64,000 nt of DNA from Fidelibacterota bacterium (GTDB taxonomy: Bacteria; Fidelibacterota; UBA8477; JABMPR01): NCBI GenBank assembly GCA_016784025.1, contig JADHVL010000002.1:52490-116489 (forward strand), given 5' to 3'. How positions within the stretch are numbered: position 1 is the stretch's first letter; every line of letters starts with the position of its first letter. Of the stretch, positions 1 to 10,233 are shown in pieces. The translations under genes and the position numbers were made by a program. The notes below the pieces were generated by a model. That model did not search any database. It was not told the DNA's origin and saw only the letters and a program-made list of their open reading frames with translations.

Positions 1-1
1 T

Positions 2-172
2 GCTCATGTTTCGGGGAACATCGACACAGATGAATTGGGTCTCGTAAAGCAAAGTAATCCACAAGCCCGTCTGGGATTCATTGAAGGTGAACCTCAATTA
101 ATGAAGCTCACTTCGTCCCGGGATTTTGACCTCATTAAACTGTTTTTATCAAACGAATCCATCACTGCGTAA
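2..172 (+). CDS. 3' end of a CDS that enters from upstream of the window (C-terminal 56 aa, ...LIKLFLSNESITA*); product unknown
   Basis: Frame-2 reading frame is open from base 2 to a TAA at 170-172; no recognisable motif. It may belong to the same glycan locus as the downstream genes. Confidence 0.3.
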   Translation, partial: AHVSGNIDTDELGLVKQSNPQARLGFIEGEPQLMKLTSSRDFDLIKLFLSNESITA

Positions 173-180
173 GCTGCTGA

Positions 181-1257
181 ATGCACTCTAGCCAACCCCA
201 ACGTCTGGATTTTATATATAGCGCTGAGAAGGAAAAATCTGCGCTGCTGCCTCTCTACACTCACATGAAACAACACAATAGTGATGTCAGGATGGTTAAA
301 ATTCATCGACGAAGTATTTTTAAAAGTTATATCCGAAACCTTGCTCCCGTTGTGGTGGCCAGCTATGACATGACTTTAGATCGCGTAAAAAAGGCGGGGT
401 GGGTTGGCCGAACTGTGTACGTGGATCATGGGTTGAGTCCCGTCAAATACTATGCTTATCGATATGAAACATTTCACGATATAGACTTACTCTTTTACCC
501 CGGACCCGTTTTCAAAAAAATAATGGAAGTTCTCAACCCTGAGTTTAAGCAGGGTTTGCTTGGTGGACTTCCAAAGATGGATGAATTCATGGGTAGCAAA
601 ATCAATAAGGTGGATTACTGTGCAGAGTTGGGTCTAGATCCACAAAAACCAGTCGTATTGTTCGCGCCAACCTGGGGGGGTAAGTATGAATCAACTTGGG
701 GTATCAATAACGCCAGGTTTTTGTCAGGAATTCCAAACCTGGTAATCAGTCCACATCCTGCTGATTTCAAAGCGGCAAAGCGCTTTAATGCCATCCTCCC
801 TAAACAACCAGGTTCAACCAACGACTTGATCAAGATCGCCGATGTCGTCATCAGTGATGTGTCATCAATAGTAGGTGAGGCAGCCCTATTGGGGAAACCA
901 ACAATTCAACTTGAATTGCCAAATTATCCTGGATGCTTCCCAAATCCGGACAAACGCAAAAAGGGGGATTGGCTAGATGCGACGCGACTTTCTTTCTTCG
1001 CTGAGCAGGCGGATCCTATCAAGCGACCTTTTAAGCTGGCATTTTTAGATGAAGATTGGGTTTTGGGTTATACCAGCAAACCTGAGAACTTAATTGACAC
1101 CGTCGAAAGAGCCCTTTCCGAGCCAGAGCGTTTTGCTGAAAAACGAGCCTACTGGAATGAACAGAACTGCTATATGCCAGATGGAAATACCAATGAAAGA
1201 TTGACCAAAATGATATTTCATTATATTGACACTGGTGTTCTAAAACAATTTGGGTGA
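181..1257 (+). CDS. CDP-glycerol/CDP-ribitol poly(alditol-phosphate) phosphotransferase, TagF/TarL-like
   Basis: LFAPTWGGKYE (TagF 'APTWR' motif) and VISDVSSIVGEAALLGKP (TagF 'ITDYSS' motif) match the Glyphos_transf catalytic C-terminal half. The true start may be an internal Met. Confidence 0.65.
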   Translation: MHSSQPQRLDFIYSAEKEKSALLPLYTHMKQHNSDVRMVKIHRRSIFKSYIRNLAPVVVASYDMTLDRVKKAGWVGRTVYVDHGLSPVKYYAYRYETFHDIDLLFYPGPVFKKIMEVLNPEFKQGLLGGLPKMDEFMGSKINKVDYCAELGLDPQKPVVLFAPTWGGKYESTWGINNARFLSGIPNLVISPHPADFKAAKRFNAILPKQPGSTNDLIKIADVVISDVSSIVGEAALLGKPTIQLELPNYPGCFPNPDKRKKGDWLDATRLSFFAEQADPIKRPFKLAFLDEDWVLGYTSKPENLIDTVERALSEPERFAEKRAYWNEQNCYMPDGNTNERLTKMIFHYIDTGVLKQFG

Positions 1258-1329
1258 GCAGGAAACTCAACTATTTTTTTCGGTGCTGACCAACCAATCC
1301 AATTAAAAGAGAGATAACGTGGGTACTAT

Positions 1330-2625
1330 ATGAATGTAGCAATAATTCTGGCCGGTGGAAAAGGTGAGCGTTTTGGTGGTGAAGTCCCCAAGCAATTTGT
1401 CGTTCTTCACGGACACCGAGTAATGGATTATGCCATAAAAGCCTTCGAGCAGCATCCGGAAATTGATAAAATTATTATTGTGGTACCTGCAAATTGGAAG
1501 GCTGAGCTTGCCTTAGAATATCCACAACATCTGGTCGTCCTGGGAGGAGATACTCGACGAGAGTCATCCTATAATGGCTTAATTGCATGCCCTGAAGATA
1601 CAGATAAGGTGCTATTGCATGATGCTGCCAGACCCTTTTTGGACTATGACACTATTCAAAGAGTACTGGATGCATTAAAGAATTACGATGCTGTCGATAC
1701 AGCAATTGCTGCAACAGATACTATCATAGAAGTAAAAGACAATATCATTACTGACATGCCTGTCAGAGATTTTTTATACCAGGGCCAGACCCCCCAGGGG
1801 TTCAACTACAAGGTCATTCGTAAAGCACATGAAAGCATTTTTGTAGAGACCACTGATGACATACGCCTAGCCATTGAAATGGGTATACAATGTGTGTCCG
1901 TAGCTGGTTCTCAATTCAACTTTAAGATTACCTCTTCCAACGATTTATACATGGCTGAACGAGTCACCCAAATTAATGCAGTAAAAACCGCAGAAACCCC
2001 TCAGTTGGATGGCAAAAAAGTTTTAATTTTTGGTGGAACAGGTGGCATTGGTTCAGCACTAAGTGAGATTCTTAAAAGCCAAAATGCCGATGTAACTGCT
2101 TTGGGCTCAGAGGTGGATCTCACCAAAGACACCCTCCCTGAAAGTCTCACCAGAGACTGGGATATCATTATTCACACTGCAGGTATATTCATAAAGAAAC
2201 CGTTTTCTGAATTGAGTGTGGCCGAATGGGACAAAGTGATGGCCGTGAATTTGCGATCAGCGTTTCTAGTAGCTCAGCTTGCTCGAAAAACAATGAAACA
2301 GGGTGGGTGGCTCACTTTTATTGGATCCAGCTCATCCCATAGAGGACGAACCAGCCAGTCTGTTTACGCCGCTTCAAAAGCAGCACTAAACAATCTTACA
2401 CAATCGCTTGCTGCTGAATTTCTAGATGATAATATCAGGGTGAATTGTATAAATCCCCCGCGGACCGATACACCTATGCGGCACCAGGCTTTTCCTGGAG
2501 AAAATCGCGACTTATTAGCTGACCCTGGACAAGTGGCCAAAGATATTTTAAAATATTGCTCTGGTGAGGAAACGGGTCACATCGTAAACCTCAAATACAC
2601 CACGCAATTCCGGGCAAAGAGATGA
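1330..2625 (+). CDS. Bifunctional CDP-ribitol synthase, Bcs1-like: N-terminal IspD/TarI-type cytidylyltransferase fused to a C-terminal SDR reductase
   Basis: N-terminus ILAGGKGERFGGEVPKQF is the IspD/TarI cytidylyltransferase P-loop. C-terminal half has a Rossmann GGTGGIGSA motif and the SDR catalytic S...YAASKAA segment. Its ATGA stop/start overlaps the next gene. Confidence 0.8.
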   Translation: MNVAIILAGGKGERFGGEVPKQFVVLHGHRVMDYAIKAFEQHPEIDKIIIVVPANWKAELALEYPQHLVVLGGDTRRESSYNGLIACPEDTDKVLLHDAARPFLDYDTIQRVLDALKNYDAVDTAIAATDTIIEVKDNIITDMPVRDFLYQGQTPQGFNYKVIRKAHESIFVETTDDIRLAIEMGIQCVSVAGSQFNFKITSSNDLYMAERVTQINAVKTAETPQLDGKKVLIFGGTGGIGSALSEILKSQNADVTALGSEVDLTKDTLPESLTRDWDIIIHTAGIFIKKPFSELSVAEWDKVMAVNLRSAFLVAQLARKTMKQGGWLTFIGSSSSHRGRTSQSVYAASKAALNNLTQSLAAEFLDDNIRVNCINPPRTDTPMRHQAFPGENRDLLADPGQVAKDILKYCSGEETGHIVNLKYTTQFRAKR

Positions 2626-3713
2626 TTCAAACCCTGGGTAAGGTCTTTAAAGCATTGGACCGCGTAGGCCTGGAAAGTTGCATTGGGGATGAATCATTAT
2701 TTGGATTAGCTGAAGGTAATCTAGAAAAATATATATTCGATCCAGTCATTTATCAGTTCCCCACCAGACTCTCAGGAATCCGCTATATCGCTTTGACAGT
2801 CATCCTGTATTTTCAAGGTATCGTTGTAAAGCCTAAGTGGGTGCATGGAAGTTTTAGACTAAAAATAAGAGGGAAAACTGATACTGGCAGGAAGGCTGCT
2901 AATTTCATTTTTTTAATGCGACTAAAAAAAACACCTGATCATCTAGGTATATACGAAAATAACCGATCCTGCGTTTTCCCTGAGTCGGCCATGAGACCGC
3001 GGGAAGATTTCCCTTATAAGGATATAATTATTAAAACGCCCCCTCATCTGCACCAGTTTTCTACCGACTTCAAAAAACAACTTTTTTCAAATACCTATAG
3101 AACACACCCCACTAACTTTGACCAACAGACTGCTGATCAGGCAGAATCCATGCTTTTCCGGATTGCTGACATTCTAAATACCCAGGGAAGTCATTGGTGG
3201 CTTGAAGGGGGTACACTTCTTGGACTATTCCGAGATGGTAAATTATTGGATTGGGATCATGATATCGATCTTGGTCTCAAGTTTGAATCTGACGCGCAAA
3301 TTTCAAAGCTGATCCTTGAACTGAAAAAAACTCCCTACTACATCAAAATCTTAGACTTCCCCCAGAAGGAGGGTCTCTGGAACCTTGGTAACATCCGCCT
3401 GATAAAAATTTATCCACGACGTTTCTATTTTTTTCACACAGATCTCTGTCTTGATCTCTTTGTCTTTTATCGGGAAGCGTTTGAAAACGAAACTGATCCG
3501 GTTTACAAGTATGTTGTGCATCAGAGAAACGGATATCATTCGGCCTCCATTCTCGATGATTTAACAGATTTGTTCCATAAAGGTCATCGTCTTGGTCGGC
3601 CAGAGCAAACGGAAACTTTCTTGGCCAATAAGTATGGTGATAATTGGAGTACCCCTGTAAAAGAGTGGCATGTAGCCATTGATGATAAATCTATCCTCAA
3701 TAACATGGATTAG
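2622..3713 (+). CDS. LicD-family (fukutin/FKRP-fold) phospho-alcohol transferase
   Basis: WWLEGGTLLGLFRDGKLLDWDHDIDLGL matches the LicD nucleotidyltransferase-fold core. The N-terminal ~180 aa are unassigned, with a possible TM at YIALTVILYFQGIVV. Translationally coupled to the CDP-ribitol synthase. Confidence 0.7.
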   Translation: MIQTLGKVFKALDRVGLESCIGDESLFGLAEGNLEKYIFDPVIYQFPTRLSGIRYIALTVILYFQGIVVKPKWVHGSFRLKIRGKTDTGRKAANFIFLMRLKKTPDHLGIYENNRSCVFPESAMRPREDFPYKDIIIKTPPHLHQFSTDFKKQLFSNTYRTHPTNFDQQTADQAESMLFRIADILNTQGSHWWLEGGTLLGLFRDGKLLDWDHDIDLGLKFESDAQISKLILELKKTPYYIKILDFPQKEGLWNLGNIRLIKIYPRRFYFFHTDLCLDLFVFYREAFENETDPVYKYVVHQRNGYHSASILDDLTDLFHKGHRLGRPEQTETFLANKYGDNWSTPVKEWHVAIDDKSILNNMD

Positions 3714-3724
3714 GTCTGAGGCGA

Positions 3725-4357
3725 ATGCATACAATCGATTTATCATACCTACCTCAATTTTTAAAAAATGGGGTGTCTAAAAAAACCATCATTATAGGGA
3801 ACGGCCCCAGTGCAGCTGGGCACGCATTGGGCAAAGAGATTGATGACTTTGAGCAGATCATTCGCATTAATAATTATGTTACCCATAACATGGAAACCCA
3901 TGTTGGATCTCGAACAGATATCTGGGTCAATGGTGCCAATCAGGGTTTAAAGCGTCGTTCTGATATCCCTGAGAATATATTGGTGATGATTCCCCCCGTA
4001 GTTTTAAAGCATAAAGGTGATACCATACATCCTCGCATTACCAAACGACTTGGGACAAAAAATTATGCACTTCTACCAATAGAGATCATGTCTGAAATGG
4101 AATCAAGCTGTGGTCTTGATCGACCGACAACCGGATTCTTTGCCATTTATTTCTTTTACCTCTTGGGTCTTGACCTGACGCTTCACGGTTTCGATTTTTT
4201 TGTCGGTTCAACTGCTCATTATTTTGATAGTCCCCTTAAACGCTGGCTCAAAGAAAAGGGGCTCATTCGCAAAGCAGGAAAACATGATGTGAGTGGAGAA
4301 AAGGAATTTGTTGAGTCTCTTATCGGGCAGGAAAAAATAAAGCTTCTGACCGGTTAA
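3725..4357 (+). CDS. Cst-like (GT42 / DUF115 MAF-type) putative sialyl/nonulosonate transferase, short form
   Basis: IIIGNGPSAAGHALGKEIDDFEQIIRINNY resembles the Campylobacter Cst-II N-terminal 'IAGNGPSLKEID...FDVFRCNQ' CMP-sugar binding region. At 210 aa it is shorter than Cst-II. Confidence 0.45.
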   Translation: MHTIDLSYLPQFLKNGVSKKTIIIGNGPSAAGHALGKEIDDFEQIIRINNYVTHNMETHVGSRTDIWVNGANQGLKRRSDIPENILVMIPPVVLKHKGDTIHPRITKRLGTKNYALLPIEIMSEMESSCGLDRPTTGFFAIYFFYLLGLDLTLHGFDFFVGSTAHYFDSPLKRWLKEKGLIRKAGKHDVSGEKEFVESLIGQEKIKLLTG

Positions 4358-5256
4358 TGTCCGCGTTTCAAGGTCAGCAGTACCAGTCCTGAAATCGTAA
4401 TTACACCTCCTACAATCACATTCAAGGATACGATCTCACCAAAAAACAACCAGGCTAGAATCGATGCTAAAATTGGTTCTCCGAAAGGCATGGCTCCAAC
4501 AATTGTGGGCCGTATATACCTGACTGCATAGTTCATACTGTTATGCCCTATCAGGGTAGGCAAAATGACCAGGCCCAACAACCATTTGACATCGCTGGAT
4601 GAAAATTTCATATCGATACCTAGTCCCAGGATTACTCCTATCAGAGTCAAGGCAGCAAACAAGTAAAGCCAACGGGTATACATAATATTGGTAATATCCC
4701 TGCGTACTCGTTGACCTATAAGAAGCACAACTGACATGAAGGCTGAGCTGGCCAAAGCATAGAGATTTCCTGTGGTTGCCTCAGTTCCCCAATCAAACCC
4801 AGAACCTTGAACAATGAAGGCCCCAATAATTGCGATCCACAACCCCAGCAAGGCAGCTAAAGGCAACTTGTGCTTAAGAACGAACCGTTCATAAATAAGC
4901 GTAAAGATGGGAGCCATGGTCGCGAAGAGGGTGGCGTTTGCGATTGAAGTAAGTTTTATGGCTGAATAAAAAAATGCGAAATGTAATGCCAGGAATATGC
5001 CTGCAATGATAATTGCAGGGAATTTAGCAGTCTCTAGAGGTTTCTGGGGCTGGATGATACCGTGGGTCCATAGCATCGTGGAAGCACCGGCCATTCGCCA
5101 AAATGCGATTGTGAGTGCCGCCATTTCCGGGAGAAAACGAGCAAGCGGACCACCAAAGCTGACACCCAAAAGTCCAAATGCGAGGATGAAATAAACTTTA
5201 TTATTCATAGGCTTGAACATAAACCAGGTGAAGGATTCGGACACGTGCTGATTCAT
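4354..5256 (-). CDS. EamA/DMT-superfamily transporter (about 10 TM)
   Basis: Highly hydrophobic 300-aa protein with two repeated 5-TM halves, typical of the EamA duplication. It sits on the opposite strand inside the glycan locus. Confidence 0.65.
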   Translation of the reverse strand: MNQHVSESFTWFMFKPMNNKVYFILAFGLLGVSFGGPLARFLPEMAALTIAFWRMAGASTMLWTHGIIQPQKPLETAKFPAIIIAGIFLALHFAFFYSAIKLTSIANATLFATMAPIFTLIYERFVLKHKLPLAALLGLWIAIIGAFIVQGSGFDWGTEATTGNLYALASSAFMSVVLLIGQRVRRDITNIMYTRWLYLFAALTLIGVILGLGIDMKFSSSDVKWLLGLVILPTLIGHNSMNYAVRYIRPTIVGAMPFGEPILASILAWLFFGEIVSLNVIVGGVITISGLVLLTLKRGH

Positions 5257-5338
5257 GCCATCCCCACCATATCAGACTCAAGGGGTAAGTCGTTAAAATT
5301 GTGGGCTGTGATGGGCATCTCTCCATATATATTGCAGG

Positions 5339-6016
5339 ATGTCAATTTTTTGCATAATTCCAGCTCGTGGTGGCTCCAAGGGTGTTCCACATAAAAATAT
5401 TGCACCGTTCCTGGAGCAACCCTTGATAAGTCACTCTATCAAGTACGCCTTGGAATCCAGCTTGGTTGACAGGGTATTTGTGTCTACCGATGATGAACAG
5501 ATTACAGAAATATCCAGAAGTGATGGAGCTGAAGTCATCCCGAGACCCGCAGAACTTGCTGGTGATTCGGCGACTACCGAATCCGCTATTTCACATGCAA
5601 TCGAGTGGTGGCAAGAACAGAATTTGAATCCAACAATCATTGTTTTGCTCCAGGCTACCAGTCCGCTTAGGCCCAATGGCTCTTTGGACAATGCTCTAGA
5701 GAAGTTTCAAGCAGAAGGTTTCGATTCTTTACTCAGCATCTCTCCCACCCACAGATTTTTCTGGAGGGTTGACGAAAAAGAAGCACATGCCGAGTATGAT
5801 TTTATGAATCGACCAAGACGTCAAGATATGACAGAGGCTGATATCAGATATGTTGAAAATGGTTCCGTTTACATTTTTACATCAGACCATTTCAAGCGCA
5901 CTGGAAATAGACTTGGAGGGAGAATCGGATATACCATTTTTCCAGAAGAGTACAGTCCTGAAATAGATACACCGAGCGATTTTTTATTGCTGGAAAAAAT
6001 TGCTGAAAATTTATAA
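5339..6016 (+). CDS. neuA: CMP-nonulosonic acid synthetase (acylneuraminate cytidylyltransferase, NeuA/KdsB family)
   Basis: N-terminal IIPARGGSKGVPHKNI is the NeuA-family signature; length 225 aa. Confidence 0.8.
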   Translation: MSIFCIIPARGGSKGVPHKNIAPFLEQPLISHSIKYALESSLVDRVFVSTDDEQITEISRSDGAEVIPRPAELAGDSATTESAISHAIEWWQEQNLNPTIIVLLQATSPLRPNGSLDNALEKFQAEGFDSLLSISPTHRFFWRVDEKEAHAEYDFMNRPRRQDMTEADIRYVENGSVYIFTSDHFKRTGNRLGGRIGYTIFPEEYSPEIDTPSDFLLLEKIAENL

Positions 6017-6039
6017 AGATAGATCGTTTTACTAAAATA

Positions 6040-7101
6040 TTGGAGGTTGCTTTGCCAACTTTACAACTAGGCTCACATTGGGTAGGTAATAGTGAGCCAA
6101 CCTATATCATCGCTGAAATTGGTATCAATCACCAGGGTGAGGTGGAAATTGCAAAAAGGCTGATTCAAGAAGCGGCTGATGCAGGAGCCAATGCGGTTAA
6201 ATTTCAAAAGCGCAGTATAAAGCGCATCCTGACCCACGAAGGTCTGGAGATGCCCTATGACAATCGTAATTCATTTGGTAAAACCTATGGTGAGCATAAA
6301 AAAGCTCTGGAGCTTTCTGAGGATGACTATCAGGAACTCTTGAGTTTCGCCGCTGAACATAAAGTTGACTTTATCGCTTCTGGATGGGATGAAGAAAGTA
6401 TCGATTTTCTAGATACTTTAGGTGTCCCTTTTTTCAAAATGGCTTCAGCAGATTTGACCAACATACCATTGCTCATACATACGGCAAAAAAGAACAAGCC
6501 CATGATTCTATCAACCGGCATGGCTAACATGGAAATGGTAGAAACGGCTGTGAACGCCGTCAAGCCATTCGATGTGCCTCTATGCGTTCTACAGTGTACA
6601 TCGACATATCCATCAGTATTTGAAGAGGTTAATCTTGGTGTGATTCATACCTTCAAACAAAGATTTCCTGATGCAGTGATTGGCTATTCAGGGCACGAAT
6701 TAGGTATCGCTATCACTGAAGCGGCTGTAGCTCTTGGTGCTAAAATTGTTGAACGTCACTTTACCCTTGATCGTACCATGAAAGGTGGTGATCATGCCGC
6801 CTCCCTTGAACCAGGTGGCTTTTCAAAACTGGTTCGGGATATCCGCCATATTGAAGCGGCCATGGGTGGTTCATCCAAGCATGTACAGGAATCAGAAGCT
6901 CCCATTTTCAAAAAATTAGCTAAAAGTGTTGTCTCACAGGTAGTGATTCCTTCAGGGACTGTTCTTACAAGAGACATGCTAACAACTAAGGGTCCAGGAA
7001 CCGGTATTTCACCTGCTCGGATGGATGAGCTATTAGGAAAAATGGTTATCAAGGACATCGCCGCAGACGTTGTACTCAAGGATGAAGACATCAACTGGTA
7101 A
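6040..7101 (+). CDS. neuB: Nonulosonic acid (Neu5Ac/KDN 9-phosphate) synthase, NeuB family with C-terminal SAF domain
   Basis: YIIAEIGINHQGEVEIAKRLIQEAADAGANAVKFQ is the NeuB PEP-condensing core, followed by an SAF-like C-terminus. The start is probably TTG at 6040 or 6050, as there is no ATG. Confidence 0.85.
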   Translation: MEVALPTLQLGSHWVGNSEPTYIIAEIGINHQGEVEIAKRLIQEAADAGANAVKFQKRSIKRILTHEGLEMPYDNRNSFGKTYGEHKKALELSEDDYQELLSFAAEHKVDFIASGWDEESIDFLDTLGVPFFKMASADLTNIPLLIHTAKKNKPMILSTGMANMEMVETAVNAVKPFDVPLCVLQCTSTYPSVFEEVNLGVIHTFKQRFPDAVIGYSGHELGIAITEAAVALGAKIVERHFTLDRTMKGGDHAASLEPGGFSKLVRDIRHIEAAMGGSSKHVQESEAPIFKKLAKSVVSQVVIPSGTVLTRDMLTTKGPGTGISPARMDELLGKMVIKDIAADVVLKDEDINW

Positions 7102-7113
7102 TCAGGAGTTCTA

Positions 7114-7611
7114 ATGATATCTGAACAACTTCAGGCCAAAGCTCAAAAGATCAAATTGGTAGTAACTGATATAGATGGTGTCTGGACAGATGCAAAAATC
7201 TATTACACAGGAGAAGGGGAGTTACTAAAGGCATTTAGCTATTATGATGGTATGGGAACCGCCCTTCTTACTAAGGCCAATATCAGAACAGCCATCATTA
7301 CTGGCGAAAATTCAGAGCCTGTTGCCCGAAGAGCTGAGAAACTCAAAATTGAGGATGTTTTTCTTGGAGTTCATGATAAGCTTGAAGCCTTTGAGTCTCT
7401 TCTGGAAAAATACCAGCTCCACCCATCGGAAGTAGCCTATATCGGTGATGATCTAAATGACTATAATGTTATGCAGGTAGCCGGTCTCACTGCAGCACCT
7501 TCCAGCACGCCAGCCTTCCACATTCTCAAACCAGACATTTTGTTAAGCCGCGCTGGTGGTGATGGTGCCTTTAGAGAGTTTGCTGATCTCATCATAGCAT
7601 CTCAGCGATGA
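7114..7611 (+). CDS. KdsC-family HAD phosphatase (Kdo-8-P / Neu5Ac-9-P / KDN-9-P phosphatase type)
   Basis: VVTDIDGVWTD (HAD motif I, DxDG) and IGDDLNDYNVM (motif IV); 165 aa is typical of KdsC-type C0 HAD phosphatases. Confidence 0.75.
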   Translation: MISEQLQAKAQKIKLVVTDIDGVWTDAKIYYTGEGELLKAFSYYDGMGTALLTKANIRTAIITGENSEPVARRAEKLKIEDVFLGVHDKLEAFESLLEKYQLHPSEVAYIGDDLNDYNVMQVAGLTAAPSSTPAFHILKPDILLSRAGGDGAFREFADLIIASQR

Positions 7612-8879
7612 AAACGCTTTTCTATTCTCTCTATAATCTTCTTCTTTATTTAGTTTTACCCATACTATGGGTAAGCGCCTACTTTAATGATAAGCTTGCC
7701 GGGAGTTTATCAGGACAGAAAGATATAACTTCGAGAGTTTTACGTTTCAAAGATAAAGTTAAGTCTGATCCCAAACCAATTATCTGGACTCACTCAGCCT
7801 CAGCAGGTGAGTTCGAGCAGATGCGTCCTGTATTAAGCAGACTCTCTGAACTGGATGTTTACATCTACCAGACATTCACCTCTGCCACCATTTTCTACAA
7901 AGCATCACACAATAAAACCTTCCATGGTGTGAGCTTTCTTCCATGGGACCTATATACACGAGTGAATCATTTCGTTACACTTCTAGAACCTGATTTGTTT
8001 ATCAACACAAGGCACGATATCTGGCCCAATCTCCACTTCTCACTTCGTAATAACCAGATTAGAAATATTCTCATCAATGCCAACCTTTATCAGAATTCGA
8101 AACGGCTACTTCCTGGCCTGCGTGGGATCAATGCATTGGTTTTTAATCAAATAGATCACATATATACTGGATCTACTACTCTCAAATCATTGTTAGAGCA
8201 AATATATGCTGGACAAATAGATGTCGTGGGTGACTCACGGTTCGATCAAGTTCACGAACGCTCGATAAAAAACAAGGAAGTGTTGATAACTAATGATTTA
8301 ATAGCTGACCGACGGGTCGTTATATATGGATCTGTGGGTGATAGCGATTTAAAGATTATTACTGATGCCATTGCTCAAGTCCCAGGTGACAAGGCTTTTA
8401 TGCATATTATTGTTCCCCACGAAATTGCTGAACGAGATCTCATTCCTTGGGAGGCTGAGCTTTTCCGACAAAAGATTAAATCAATACGAAAAAGTGAACT
8501 TGCGCAGTTCAAAAATGAATCTGTGATCATCTGGGACAGTGTGGGTCAATTGGCAGACCTGTATAAATACGCCGATCTGGCATTTATTGGAGCTGGTTTT
8601 GGCGCAGGCGTACACTCTGTAACTGAAGCTGCCATATATAAAGTACCTAGTGCCCATGGCCCCAATTATGATATTCTAGCCGAAGCCATTGATCTAGTTG
8701 AGAAAGGACTATCAGCAGTAGTAAATGATGTTGTTGATCTCACAACCTTCTTGTCAATGCCTGAGGAAATCATTTCTGAAATTTCGGTGCAAATTGAGGT
8801 ATACGTTAACGAGGGACTTGGTGCTACTGATAGAATAATAAAGAGCGAACCTCTACTTCGTTCTCTTGCTCCACAATAA
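7608..8879 (+). CDS. GT30 glycosyltransferase, Kdo-transferase (WaaA/KdtA) homolog
   Basis: N-terminal TM followed by IWTHSASAGEFEQMRPVL, cf. the WaaA 'WxHxxSVGE' N-domain motif. Length 423 aa matches WaaA. Start overlaps the stop of the phosphatase. Confidence 0.6.
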   Translation: MKTLFYSLYNLLLYLVLPILWVSAYFNDKLAGSLSGQKDITSRVLRFKDKVKSDPKPIIWTHSASAGEFEQMRPVLSRLSELDVYIYQTFTSATIFYKASHNKTFHGVSFLPWDLYTRVNHFVTLLEPDLFINTRHDIWPNLHFSLRNNQIRNILINANLYQNSKRLLPGLRGINALVFNQIDHIYTGSTTLKSLLEQIYAGQIDVVGDSRFDQVHERSIKNKEVLITNDLIADRRVVIYGSVGDSDLKIITDAIAQVPGDKAFMHIIVPHEIAERDLIPWEAELFRQKIKSIRKSELAQFKNESVIIWDSVGQLADLYKYADLAFIGAGFGAGVHSVTEAAIYKVPSAHGPNYDILAEAIDLVEKGLSAVVNDVVDLTTFLSMPEEIISEISVQIEVYVNEGLGATDRIIKSEPLLRSLAPQ

Positions 8880-9088
8880 AATTAAGCAACAATTCCTGTC
8901 CAATATCTGGAGGGAATGTCACGAGAGATTCACCATCAATACATTCAATCAGCACTAATCTATTGATCCCAATCTGTTTTCCAATGTTATGGCAGAAAAC
9001 ACATGTTTTAATAAAACTTCTGAATGTCATCACATAGTTCTCAATTGTTTTATGAATAATTTAAATCATGTTTATTAAAATGAAATGG

Positions 9089-9804: not shown

Positions 9805-10233
9805 CTATCGAATCTCCCAATCTTCCACATCACCTTCGATCAGGTTGAAGAGAGGATGAAGCTGTAACTCGATAGTCTCATTCAGCTTATGATATTTACC
9901 CAAGTCCCTCACTCTTAATTTTCCCAACAAATGAGTTTGTTCATAGAATAACTGTCCCGTGGTTACTGCTATAAATTTAGCGTCCACAGATGAGCCTATC
10001 TTGCTCTCATCAAAATGAAACCCACGTTGCTTAGCTTCTTCAAGAACACTAAGGAGATAAGAGTTAATATGGTTTAAGGGGTGATTTGTGGCTTTAAAGC
10101 GATGAAGTTGGGGATGATTCTGATACCCCTTGGTCATGCCTTCCAGGACACGTTTTGCCAACAAAGTTTCTCGCCAGAGAGCGGCCAATCCTTTGCTATC
10201 TAAATACATGGGATGAAGGGACCAAATTCTCAT
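9805..10233 (-). CDS. Pyrimidine-dimer DNA glycosylase (T4 endonuclease V-like, Pyr_excise family)
   Basis: N-terminus MRIWSLHPMYLDSKGLAALWRETLLAKRVL matches the conserved start of bacterial Pyr_excise proteins. Confidence 0.5.
   Translation of the reverse strand: MRIWSLHPMYLDSKGLAALWRETLLAKRVLEGMTKGYQNHPQLHRFKATNHPLNHINSYLLSVLEEAKQRGFHFDESKIGSSVDAKFIAVTTGQLFYEQTHLLGKLRVRDLGKYHKLNETIELQLHPLFNLIEGDVEDWEIR

Follow-up and report, generated by a model that had tools for sequence, protein, structure and literature searches.

A Marinimicrobia gene cluster that may decorate the lipopolysaccharide core with KDN and an exchangeable phospho-substituent

The gene cluster at the left end of the window (the whole 64,000-nucleotide stretch of DNA that was analysed) most likely serves to add KDN, a sugar resembling sialic acid, and ribitol-phosphate to the inner core of the outer-membrane lipopolysaccharide (LPS). 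With moderate confidence, it is read as an LPS (lipooligosaccharide) inner-core locus that carries a variable phospho-substituent cassette and not as the locus of a capsule- or teichoic-type polymer. The host, an uncultured marine bacterium, belongs to the Marinimicrobia; it is Gram-negative and part of the FCB group, as an earlier note on this DNA had surmised. The eight linked genes described in that note are all present and each scores above the Pfam gathering threshold of its family; judged by sequence, every gene of the cluster falls into a known enzyme family. The gene identities given earlier hold except for ORF4, which had been taken for a Cst-like GT42 transferase and belongs to GT29. 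The features are as follows.

1-171, forward strand: 3′ end of a standalone IspD gene (full gene of 228 aa at L001:9306-9992)
90-3789, strand not given: replaceable cassette of 3.7 kb, bounded by DNA collinearity breakpoints
181-1257, forward strand: ORF1, TagF/TagB-family CDP-alditol phosphotransferase, 358 aa (Glyphos_transf)
1330-2625, forward strand: ORF2, predicted Bcs1-type bifunctional CDP-ribitol synthase (IspD and adh_short)
2622-3713, forward strand: ORF3, LicD/FKRP-family phosphotransferase (LicD)
3725-4357, forward strand: ORF4, short soluble GT29-type sialyltransferase homolog, 210 aa, putative CMP-KDN transferase (Glyco_transf_29)
4354-5256, reverse strand: ORF5, EamA/DMT-family membrane transporter (EamA, 107.7 bits)
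5339-6016, forward strand: ORF6, NeuA-type CMP-nonulosonate (probably CMP-KDN) synthetase (CTP_transf_3)
6040-7101, forward strand: ORF7, NeuB-family nonulosonate (probably KDN-9-phosphate) synthase (NeuB and SAF/AFP); gene callers place its start at 6052, giving 349 aa
7114-7611, forward strand: ORF8, HAD C0 phosphatase with KDN-9-phosphate phosphatase markers (HAD/KdsC subfamily)
7608-8879, forward strand: ORF9, divergent GT30 (WaaA-family) CMP-ulosonate transferase (Glycos_transf_N)

The cluster starts outside the window, with a standalone IspD gene immediately to the left. This IspD scores 195.6 bits with TIGR00453 (ispD), which is above the cut-off, and 152-166 bits with MEP-type models, versus only 88.9 bits with the ribitol-5-phosphate cytidylyltransferase model. 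Its identity among relatives follows phylogeny and not cassette type. It is probably the housekeeping MEP-pathway cytidylyltransferase and is a separate neighbor of the Bcs1-like ORF2, which is distinct from it; an MEP-pathway setting for ORF2, a possibility raised in the earlier note, is not borne out. An ATGA overlap couples ORF2 and ORF3 translationally, as had been proposed, and a second one couples ORF8 and ORF9; the latter is present in most related loci. The cluster is split by the antisense EamA gene ORF5, whose relation to the pathway is uncertain. Its position between the GT29 and NeuA genes is kept in most loci, and it is missing from L025, L028-L030, and L045. The LPS-core reading explains no role for this gene or for an upstream NagB-like gene.

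The same gene order was found in about 20 species-level Marinimicrobia (SAR406) genomes, down to 35-50% protein identity and with different flanks, and the grouping is therefore not a matter of chance. NeuB, the phosphatase, and GT30 stand together in every locus that spans all three; the unit persists through an inversion in L025 and is all that is kept in the L044 lineage, its minimal form. This persistence and the conserved order suggest that the cluster genes are functionally linked. It is highly improbable that a housekeeping KdsC-WaaA pair, a nonulosonate pathway, and a ribitol-phosphate cassette are adjacent by coincidence and share no common product. Such an accident would fit the separable ribitol cassette, the reduced L044 locus, and the interruption by the EamA gene, but it is at odds with an order that survives inversion and changing flanks, with the two translational couplings, with phosphatase markers of the KDN and not the KdsC type, and with a GT29-like gene that adjoins NeuA-NeuB in an Acidimicrobiaceae genome (L031) of another phylum.

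ORF6, ORF7, and ORF8 resemble the characterised CMP-KDN pathway of Bacteroides thetaiotaomicron, which consists of the KDN-9-phosphate synthase BT1714, the KDN-9-phosphate phosphatase BT1713, and the CMP-KDN synthetase BT1715. The same three enzyme families lie adjacent in both organisms, with a predicted phosphorylated intermediate in the window pathway; unlike in B. thetaiotaomicron, their operon also holds a GT30 gene and one for a GT29-like transferase. In the PDB, ORF6 comes closest to CMP-sialate synthetases, with E = 1e-31 to 1e-20, and KdsB follows far behind (1e-7). ORF7 reaches 269.6 bits with the Pfam NeuB model, carries a SAF domain, and matches Neisseria meningitidis NeuB with E = 1.5e-47; its score with TIGR03569 is 340 bits, under the cut-off of 399.65. 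It is a true NeuB-family enzyme and not a KdsA, a confusion against which the earlier note had cautioned. ORF8 scores 168.5 bits with the KDN-9-phosphate phosphatase model NF058599 (cut-off 180, not reached) and 151.8 bits with the KdsC subfamily. It matches BT1713 at the equivalents of Glu56, Arg64, and Lys67; positions 56 and 67 are Arg and Thr in Escherichia coli KdsC and Arg and Glu in the Aquifex enzyme. These phosphatase comparisons indicate a nonulosonate pathway with phosphorylated intermediates, as previously suggested. The nonulosonate is probably KDN and not Neu5Ac, Leg, or Pse, because the gene set is limited to a synthase, a phosphatase, and a CMP-synthetase, as in BT1713-1715, because ORF8 keeps Glu56 and Lys67 of BT1713, and because no NeuC epimerase and no Leg/Pse dehydratase or aminotransferase turned up within ∼10 kb at any of ∼25 loci when the cluster genes served as tblastn queries and the intervening ORFs were checked against Pfam.

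ORF4 scores 59.2 bits with Glyco_transf_29, and the top 30 Foldseek matches of its AF2 model (pLDDT 86.6) are all GT29. In PDB sequence comparisons, ST3Gal-I is found with E = 0.003 versus 0.45 for CstII. The earlier “GT42-fold” label was close, as GT29 and GT42 share a fold class. Four sialylmotifs are kept in ORF4 and conserved across its family: L (GNGPS...RINN), S (PTTG), III (HYFD), and VS (H187...E192). With these motifs, a GT-A variant 2 fold, and neither a transmembrane segment nor disulfide cysteines, ORF4 corresponds to the bacterial GT29-like proteins described by Petit et al. (2018), a group with no characterised member. It differs from eukaryotic GT29 enzymes in its length of only 210 aa and in its donor, which is likely CMP-KDN instead of CMP-Neu5Ac. 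Metagenomes hold a very large number of ORF4 relatives, which fall into 5,836 clusters.

ORF9 is a full-length WaaA (KdtA) homolog with a hydrophobic N-terminus. It scores 95.5 bits with Glycos_transf_N, is 25% identical to E. coli WaaA, and its family profile matches Aquifex WaaA over the full length with E = 2.3e-34. It fails every curated NCBIfam WaaA equivalog cut-off (117 versus at least 363), the entire family is labeled “hypothetical protein” by NCBI, and an invariant RHD replaces the canonical ExE, turning the ExE(F/L)WP motif into TRHDIWP. Given the missed cut-offs and this substitution, ORF9 may not be the lipid A Kdo transferase. Within the LPS reading, KDN might even replace Kdo altogether, a special case in which ORF9 would be the only GT30 of the lineage and would transfer KDN from CMP-KDN directly to lipid IVA, so that a nine-carbon nonulosonate would link core and lipid A. 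The divergence of ORF9 speaks for this, as does the GT30 gene being locked in every lineage to NeuB and a KDN-9-phosphate-type phosphatase, down to the triad of L044, and not to kds genes as WaaA would be; in L045, GT30 lies amid lipid A genes with no kdsA, kdsB, or kdsD nearby. However, ORF9 retains the WaaA motifs SxGEF and GxH..xEP, the GT29-like enzyme suffices to explain KDN transfer, and Kdo is, to our knowledge, near-universal among LPS-producing bacteria, other FCB phyla included. The replacement is possible but rather unlikely.

ORF1-3 would supply the ribitol-phosphate functions. ORF1 scores 47.7 bits with Glyphos_transf (cut-off 22.1); its best NCBIfam match is, weakly, the TarB primase, and it aligns with the TagF-like capsule polymerase Cps3D (8qoy; E = 1e-4) at the PTW and SDxSS motifs. 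ORF2 combines an N-terminal IspD/TarI-like cytidylyltransferase (IspD, 168.5 bits) with a C-terminal classical SDR reductase (adh_short, 114.4 bits), the order found in Haemophilus influenzae type b Bcs1, which also has a TagF-family transferase adjacent. Four of its five best PDB matches are TarI-type ribitol-5-phosphate cytidylyltransferases (3f1c, 4jis, 6xhp, and 2vsh). The architecture occurs in 1,296 homologs, some of which are named [quoted passage not shown]. The alditol could be arabinitol or another pentitol instead of ribitol. ORF3 scores 32.5 bits with LicD (cut-off 22.6), and in the PDB it is related only to human FKRP (with the single sequence, E = 1e-7; with the family profile, 1.2e-11). 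The DxD-containing core aligns (WLEGGTLLG...WDHDIDLG with WLEGGSLLG...WDYDVDLG), and the similarity is limited to ∼45 residues and a weak C-terminal stretch. An IspD-family enzyme forming CDP-ribitol followed by a LicD-family transferase recalls mammalian ISPD/FKTN/FKRP, which act on α-dystroglycan; unlike ISPD, ORF2 is fused to a reductase, and the acceptor is certainly different.

The earlier note had proposed a Hib-like or teichoic-like surface polymer of ribitol-phosphate and nonulosonic acid. TagF-like, Bcs1-like, and LicD-like proteins are the hallmark set for ribitol-phosphate polymers, and a capsule polymerase is the best PDB match of ORF1. The proposal is nevertheless quite unlikely. 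ORF1 is the size of a primase and has just one catalytic domain, the locus lacks the Bcs3-type multi-domain polymerase and the capsule export region of the H. influenzae type b group 2 capsule, and up to 10 kb away from it no Wzx/Wzy, KpsMT/TagGH-type ABC exporter, or initiating transferase was found. The ribitol genes are, moreover, dispensable and exchanged in close relatives, and other lineages have lipid A genes as neighbors. In L045, the order is LpxL, Sua5, MsbA, TagF, IspD-SDR, GT29, NeuA, a sulfatase-fold gene, NeuB, phosphatase, GT30, and DUF3108, followed by RseP, Dxr, LpxA, LpxC/FabZ, LpxD, Skp, and BamA. An MsbA-like ABC transporter gene lies directly upstream of the cluster in both L045 and L029; its best family is MsbA_lipidA (518 bits, under the 602-bit cut-off) with 33-37% identity to E. 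coli MsbA. GT30 of the relatives with this context is only 37-38% identical to ORF9, and no lpx or msbA genes adjoin the locus in the window genome itself. The missing polymerase, flippase, and exporter and the lipid A neighbors elsewhere make LPS core decoration likelier than a polymer. As a precedent, in the marine bacteria where Petit et al. found GT29-like genes, a Kdo residue of the LPS core bears a neuraminic acid (PMC5811610), and the phylum's one cultivated representative is a diderm with an LPS layer (PMC11652737).

What is observed are the families of the genes, their synteny, the limits of the cassette, the marker residues of the phosphatase, and the lipid A genes beside the locus in other lineages. 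For LPS core decoration, we infer from these a pathway, with all its substrates, its acceptor, and the sequence of its reactions, in which ORF4 and ORF6-9 would form a conserved block and ORF1-3 a variable one. ORF7 would condense PEP and mannose-6-phosphate to KDN-9-phosphate, ORF8 would remove the phosphate, and ORF6 would convert KDN to CMP-KDN. GT30 ORF9 and GT29-like ORF4 would then attach ulosonic acids (Kdo and/or KDN) to the precursor of lipid A and to the core as it grows, on the cytoplasmic side of the inner membrane, prior to flipping by MsbA. ORF2 would reduce ribulose-5-phosphate and form CDP-ribitol, from which ORF1 and ORF3 would transfer ribitol-5-phosphate to the core.

Bacterial GT29-like genes, the KDN pathway, and Bcs1 fusions are each already known and widespread; a published description of this combined locus architecture was not found in the literature, in line with the novelty claimed for it. 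The coupling of the ribitol and nonulosonate modules, which the earlier note had placed in a single locus, is not obligate: the ORF1-3 cassette is present in only 5 of ∼21 related loci, and L044 keeps only NeuB, phosphatase, and GT30. The cassette comprises the last IspD codons, ORF1, ORF2, ORF3, and the first ∼21 codons of ORF4, and its breakpoints are sharp and recurrent. L010 is collinear with the window throughout (92% DNA identity); collinearity with L011, L013, and L015 (78-88%) stops at 87-111 and restarts exactly at 3789. In these close relatives, a different cassette takes the place of ORF1-3. Its nucleotidyltransferase is unrelated, and the TagF and LicD proteins that accompany it have diverged; among the cassettes, the type of nucleotidyltransferase goes together with the types of TagF and LicD. 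Different cassettes in close relatives suggest that the phospho-substituent differs between lineages, resembling serotype-type variation.

The cluster at the left end of the window is best read as a locus for the inner core of LPS/LOS, which would be built on the cytoplasmic face before flipping by MsbA. Each of its enzymes belongs to a known family, and several of these families are common in metagenomes. No description of this combination of genes, of the cassette at its left side, or of the coupling of a GT30 gene to NeuB was found in the literature that could be searched. ORF listing and HMM scans recover, at the same coordinates, the eight genes that an earlier note had described; the full gene content is as follows.

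Genes of the cluster (positions in the window)
1–171, plus strand: standalone IspD, 3′ end only (the complete 228-aa gene is visible on the source contig)
181–1257, plus strand: ORF1, TagF-family (Glyphos_transf, 47.7 bits)
1330–2625, plus strand: ORF2, IspD fused to a classical SDR (IspD 168.5 bits, SDR 114.4 bits)
2622–3713, plus strand: ORF3, LicD (Pfam LicD)
3725–4357, plus strand: ORF4, GT29 (Glyco_transf_29, 59.2 bits)
4354–5256, antisense: ORF5, EamA transporter gene between ORF4 and ORF6
5339–6016, plus strand: ORF6, NeuA-type cytidylyltransferase (HMM scan)
6040–7101, plus strand: ORF7, NeuB with SAF domain (HMM scan)
7114–7611, plus strand: ORF8, KdsC-subfamily HAD phosphatase (HMM scan)
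7608–8879, plus strand: ORF9, GT30 (Glycos_transf_N, 95.5 bits)

The window begins within the standalone IspD gene, and ATGA overlaps are found at both ORF2/ORF3 and ORF8/ORF9. A promoter and terminator scan stays at chance level (19 observed, 21 expected). Past position 8879 follow unrelated housekeeping genes (Tpx, a pyrimidine-dimer glycosylase, DEAD-box helicases). The glycosylase gene (Pyr_excise, T4 endoV-like, 9805–10,233) lies between Tpx and a DEAD-box helicase; it has no tblastn match in the loci L013, L015, and L016, is present in other close relatives, and is apparently an accessory gene of variable occurrence.

Homologs of the cluster are annotated as Candidatus Marinimicrobia or FCB group, and a scan of species-representative genomes with the ORF4 family as query yielded 34 loci, 21 of them from Marinimicrobia. 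The order conserved by tblastn is NagB-like (minus strand), IspD, TagF, a variable gene, LicD, GT29, EamA (minus strand), NeuA, NeuB, phosphatase, and GT30. The last four genes are kept together in all loci that span them; the L044 lineage has only NeuB, phosphatase, and GT30. The block persists where it is inverted relative to GT29 (L025), where the right flanks differ (L006, L046), and where GT30 is only 34 to 38% identical. Left of the window on the source contig (L001:6763–9162, minus strand) lies a conserved, divergently oriented gene for a 799-aa protein that has no Pfam match. In NCBIfam it partially resembles “glucosamine-6-phosphate deaminase-like protein” (208 bits, cut-off 384), and in most species it keeps its place beside the locus, with 75 to 96% identity.

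Several insertions accompany the locus in other genomes. In a Marinimicrobia MAG (L024:10749–16616, CALBFA010000076.1), a nitrous-oxide reductase cluster with NosZ propeller, NosD, NosL, ABC ATPase, NosY-like membrane protein, and cytochrome-like genes sits between GT29 and NeuA and splits the glycan locus by ∼7.4 kb. The close relatives L010, L011, L012, and L015 to L017 have an insert of ∼1.5 to 1.8 kb between GT30 and Tpx (L010:15142–16827; corresponding site in the window 8976–8996) that is absent from the genome of the window. Its product is a secreted protein of 561 aa in which a domain resembles the C-terminal part of PNGase F. A ∼650-aa multi-pass protein is encoded between NeuA and NeuB in L019 (12243–14216), L029 (11446–13401), and L045 (6402–8282), as well as in L023 and L030; its sulfatase-fold domain (LtaS/phosphoglycerol-transferase-like) suggests a further periplasmic transfer of a phospho-substituent in these lineages. 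Three MAGs labeled “uncultured Lentisphaeria bacterium” (L012, L018, and L026; CAZDVD01, CAZVSF01, and CAZOBQ01) also carry the locus. Their proteins are 60 to 90% identical to the Marinimicrobia versions and the flanks are the same, and the labels are probably wrong.

In the conserved block, a CMP-synthetase, a NeuB-family synthase, and a C0 HAD phosphatase are encoded side by side. ORF6 clusters with CMP-sialate synthetases and not with KdsB. ORF7 scores 340 bits on NeuB_NnaB, for which the cut-off is 399.65; its HMM scores and its match to N. meningitidis NeuB agree with the NeuB-type assignment made earlier. Neither NeuC nor Leg/Pse precursor genes turned up in ∼25 loci when these were searched by tblastn with genes of the cluster and the intervening ORFs were checked against Pfam. 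The gene content of ORF6 to ORF8 is that of the characterized CMP-KDN pathway of Bacteroides thetaiotaomicron, BT1713 to BT1715. CMP-KDN is made from mannose-6-phosphate in three steps by a synthase, a phosphatase, and a CMP-synthetase (PMC6200933). By analogy, ORF7 is predicted to be a KDN-9-P synthase that would use mannose-6-phosphate as substrate.

For ORF8, a housekeeping KdsC function has to be weighed against that of a KDN-9-P phosphatase, and the HMM score alone nearly ties the two. The protein narrowly misses the cut-off of the KDN-9-P phosphatase model NF058599 (168.5 bits, cut-off 180), and passes that of the broader KdsC/YrbI subfamily (151.8 bits, cut-off 106.95). KdsC and the B. 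thetaiotaomicron KDN-9-P phosphatase BT1713 match it with nearly the same score. Glu56 and Lys67 of BT1713 were reportedly described by Lu et al. in 2009 as specificity markers of KDN-9-P phosphatase; the sole corroboration of this role is the existence of an E56A mutant structure (4hgq). At the marker sites, the aligned segments are ITGENSEPVARRAEKLK in ORF8, LTGEKTEIVRRRAEKLK in BT1713, ITGRKAKLVEDRCATLG in E. coli KdsC, and ISGRDSAPLITRLKELG in the Aquifex protein. The equivalent residues are Glu and Lys in ORF8 and its ortholog, Arg and Thr in E. coli KdsC, and Arg and Glu in Aquifex, which disfavors KdsC.

ORF9 is a full-length, divergent GT30, as its profile matches Aquifex WaaA over residues 15 to 350 (E 2.3e-34). 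Its identity with the E. coli enzyme is 25%, and against the curated WaaA equivalogs, whose cut-offs start at 363 bits, its best score is 117.4 bits. An ExE(F/L)WP motif is seen in WaaA of E. coli and Aquifex, whereas the ORF9 family has TRHDIWP instead (residues 134–140, window 8007–8027), which is invariant in the 20 family members aligned. This divergence, together with the constant coupling to the KDN-9-P synthase and phosphatase genes, makes it conceivable, at low probability, that ORF9 transfers KDN rather than Kdo and might even be the sole lipid-A-proximal transferase. KdsA, KdsB, and KdsD were not found by tblastn in 560 kb of Marinimicrobia DNA, a search of low power as the DNA is mostly from the same region. 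A more extensive reading, to which we give low credence, is that KDN replaces Kdo as the linker of core and lipid A in Marinimicrobia/SAR406 through the divergent GT30 (RHD in place of ExE), with the GT29-like enzyme adding more KDN and the cassette adding ribitol-phosphate or another phospho-substituent. In the NCBI annotation, ORF9 (7608–8879) and its relatives across the whole phylum are named “hypothetical protein”.

ORF4 had been assigned to a GT42 (Cst-I/Cst-II) fold in the earlier note, and this assignment gives way to GT29 by Pfam, phmmer, and Foldseek. The protein matches PF00777 with 59.2 bits in two stretches (cut-off 23 bits), and the Pfam scan gives no GT42-type match; PF00777 is also present in all 79 ORF4 homologs. 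In phmmer, the closest solved proteins are ST3Gal-I and ST6Gal-I (E 0.003–0.008; ST3Gal-I, E 0.0027), with CstII at E 0.45. An AlphaFold model built from 23 family members (pLDDT 86.6) takes on a GT-A variant 2 fold whose nearest solved structures are GT29 enzymes. In a Foldseek search of the PDB, ranks 1 to 30 are all GT29 (E 2.8e-8 to 3e-5, query-normalized TM 0.55–0.66), and the first GT42 chain, CstII, follows at rank 31 (E 1.4e-4). The combined Pfam result, phmmer ranking, and 30 GT29 chains ahead by fold rule out GT42. The sialylmotifs L, S, III, and VS can be aligned to pig ST3Gal-I, and the following residues are invariant or nearly so across the family: N26, G27, S29, R47, and N49 in motif L; P134, T136, and G137 in motif S; H165, Y166, F167, and D168 in motif III; and H187, the motif-VS histidine, and E192 in motif VS.

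Eukaryotic GT29 enzymes have a type II topology, a stem, and conserved disulfide cysteines, whereas the 210-aa ORF4 has none of these: it begins right at motif L, without a hydrophobic N-terminus, and has no conserved cysteine. It matches in this respect the 23 bacterial GT29-like sequences without anchor, stem, and cysteines that were described by Petit et al. in 2018 (PMC5811610). A bacterial GT29-like gene is not new in itself, since the family comprises 5836 representative clusters at E ≤ 1e-3, viral and phage members included; none has been characterized, however. The ORF4-family gene adjoins NeuA and NeuB in Marinimicrobia and is contiguous with them in an Acidimicrobiaceae genome (L031), which supports a nonulosonate donor for this type of transferase. 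From its gene neighborhood alone, ORF4 is a putative sialic-acid/KDN transferase that would use a CMP-donor.

Distant GT29-like proteins (27–32% identity) occur in cultured Paracoccus and Frigidibacter (L037 to L043). In Paracoccus haematequi (L039:8889–10549), it shares an overlap with a GT4 gene, and no NeuA or NeuB is found by tblastn within 10 kb, a context that is uninformative on the donor. P0078, the remotest of the clear ORF4 homologs (39% identity), is encoded on a 47.6-kb contig (ENA ERZ7462356 NODE_297; L004:10001–12104) that is phage-like, with Terminase_6N, PhoH, and many small ORFs; it is followed by an unknown protein of 200 aa and by one that is GT-D-like. Short GT29-fold proteins of tailed phages and giant viruses are also present in the viral structure library.

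The left part of the cluster encodes predicted enzymes of alditol-phosphate metabolism. ORF2 combines an IspD domain (aa 3–211) with an adh_short domain (aa 277–389), and exactly this fusion is common to 1296 proteins, some of which are named bifunctional ribitol-5-P dehydrogenase/cytidylyltransferase, the function of Bcs1. NCBI names the exact ORF2 protein (1330–2625) plainly “2-C-methyl-D-erythritol 4-phosphate cytidylyltransferase”. On the curated models, ORF2 passes TIGR00453 ispD (187.7 bits, cut-off 181.3) and stays below the cut-off of the NCBIfam ribitol-5-P cytidylyltransferase (144.4 bits, cut-off 166). A role as IspD of the MEP pathway is disfavored by the SDR fusion, by the closest solved relatives of the cytidylyltransferase domain, which are the TarI enzymes from B. 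subtilis, S. aureus, and S. pneumoniae, and by the adjoining standalone IspD, on which MEP-type models score far above the ribitol model. With this neighbor as the probable MEP-type enzyme, ORF2 is probably not one, despite its NCBI name, and its domain architecture is that of Bcs1, as proposed earlier. CDP-glucitol or CDP-mannitol as the product was rejected, as those pathways use another enzyme pair. On its domain content and relatives, ORF2 is a predicted Bcs1-type CDP-ribitol synthase that would use ribulose-5-P, NADPH, and CTP.

The genes on either side encode predicted transferases. ORF1 passes Glyphos_transf with 47.7 bits (cut-off 22.1), and its APTWGG and VISDVSSI segments align to APTWRG and LITDYSSI of Cps3D (the PTW(R/G) and (T/S)D(Y/V)SS motifs). 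The Pfam LicD match of ORF3 (32.5 bits, cut-off 22.6) covers aa 191 to 222 only. Within it, W211, D212, H213, D214, and D216 do not vary among family members and align to the Asp-rich WDYDVD motif of human FKRP, a ribitol-5-phosphate transferase that is the sole PDB relative of ORF3 (E 1e-7 with the single sequence, 1.2e-11 with the family profile). The profile spans FKRP 289 to 330 and, weakly, 393 to 435; a single-sequence AF2 model of ORF3 has a pLDDT of 37.4, which is too low for a fold comparison with FKRP.

ORF2 with closely related ORF1 and ORF3 is restricted to the window and four genome species. At the same site, ∼13 species carry an alternative set with an NTP_transf_3 nucleotidyltransferase (226 aa) that falls into no specific family, a TagF-like protein (43–47% identical to that of the window), and a LicD-like protein (35–40%). 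In relatives whose DNA is 78 to 88% identical on both sides, all similarity is lost between window positions 87 to 111 and exactly 3789, a clean 3.7-kb replacement. Hybrids are found as well: L046 has IspD-SDR, a short NTP_transf_3-like gene, and a type-B LicD; L029 has an IspD-only gene, NTP_transf_3, and LicD; and L045 has TagF and IspD-SDR, with LicD absent. The TagF-type and LicD-type transferases co-vary with the type of nucleotidyltransferase, which indirectly supports their use of the CDP-linked product of that enzyme. The linkage of ribitol and nonulosonate pathways that had been proposed is real in this genome, but the swapping of the cassette in close relatives makes the two modules adjacent and separable, not obligately coupled. 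In part, this fulfills the condition for refutation that the earlier note had set.

A capsule or teichoic-type polymer, as suggested by comparison with known ribitol-phosphate polymers, is not borne out for the product. No polymerase, exporter (KpsMT/TagGH, Wzx/Wzy), or priming transferase was found within 10 kb on the window contig or in relatives, and other lineages have no transporter close to the cluster except an MsbA-like one. In L045, the left side of the cluster harbors LpxL, Sua5, and the MsbA-like gene, and the right side harbors DUF3108, RseP, Dxr, LpxA, LpxC/FabZ, LpxD, Skp, and BamA. The best family of this ABC transporter is MsbA_lipidA (518 bits, below the model cut-off of 602); the transporter shares 33 to 37% identity with MsbA of E. 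coli, and in L029 it likewise stands ahead of the cluster. According to Petit et al. (PMC5811610), neuraminic acid is attached to a Kdo of the LPS core in the marine bacteria that possess GT29-like genes. The phylum has a single cultured member, which is diderm and has an LPS layer (PMC11652737). The missing exporter, the lipid A neighbors in L045, the MsbA-like gene in L029, the GT30 gene, and these two reports make the LPS/LOS inner core the best-supported reading. KDN would be added to the core by the GT29-like ORF4 and/or the GT30 ORF9, and ribitol-phosphate would be added by ORF1 and ORF3. No report of ribitol-phosphate together with KDN in an LPS core was found in the literature, nor one that links Marinimicrobia to sialic acid or KDN.

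SAR406/Marinimicrobia are among the most abundant uncultured bacterial groups of the dark ocean, and to our knowledge nothing is known about their cell-surface chemistry. Two annotation problems in public MAGs are flagged here, namely ORF2 as plain IspD and ORF9 as hypothetical protein. ORF4 is a candidate for the first characterization of a bacterial GT29-type enzyme, for which the Paracoccus and Frigidibacter proteins offer culturable candidates, and ORF9 is one for a GT30 that may use a nonulosonate donor. If the GT30 uses KDN, it would depart from the linkage of lipid A and core through Kdo, which is otherwise near-universal. The locus predicts an anionic LPS core that bears KDN and, in some lineages, ribitol-phosphate, and a sharply bounded cassette that changes the substituent among close relatives is what pressure from phages or grazers would be expected to produce.
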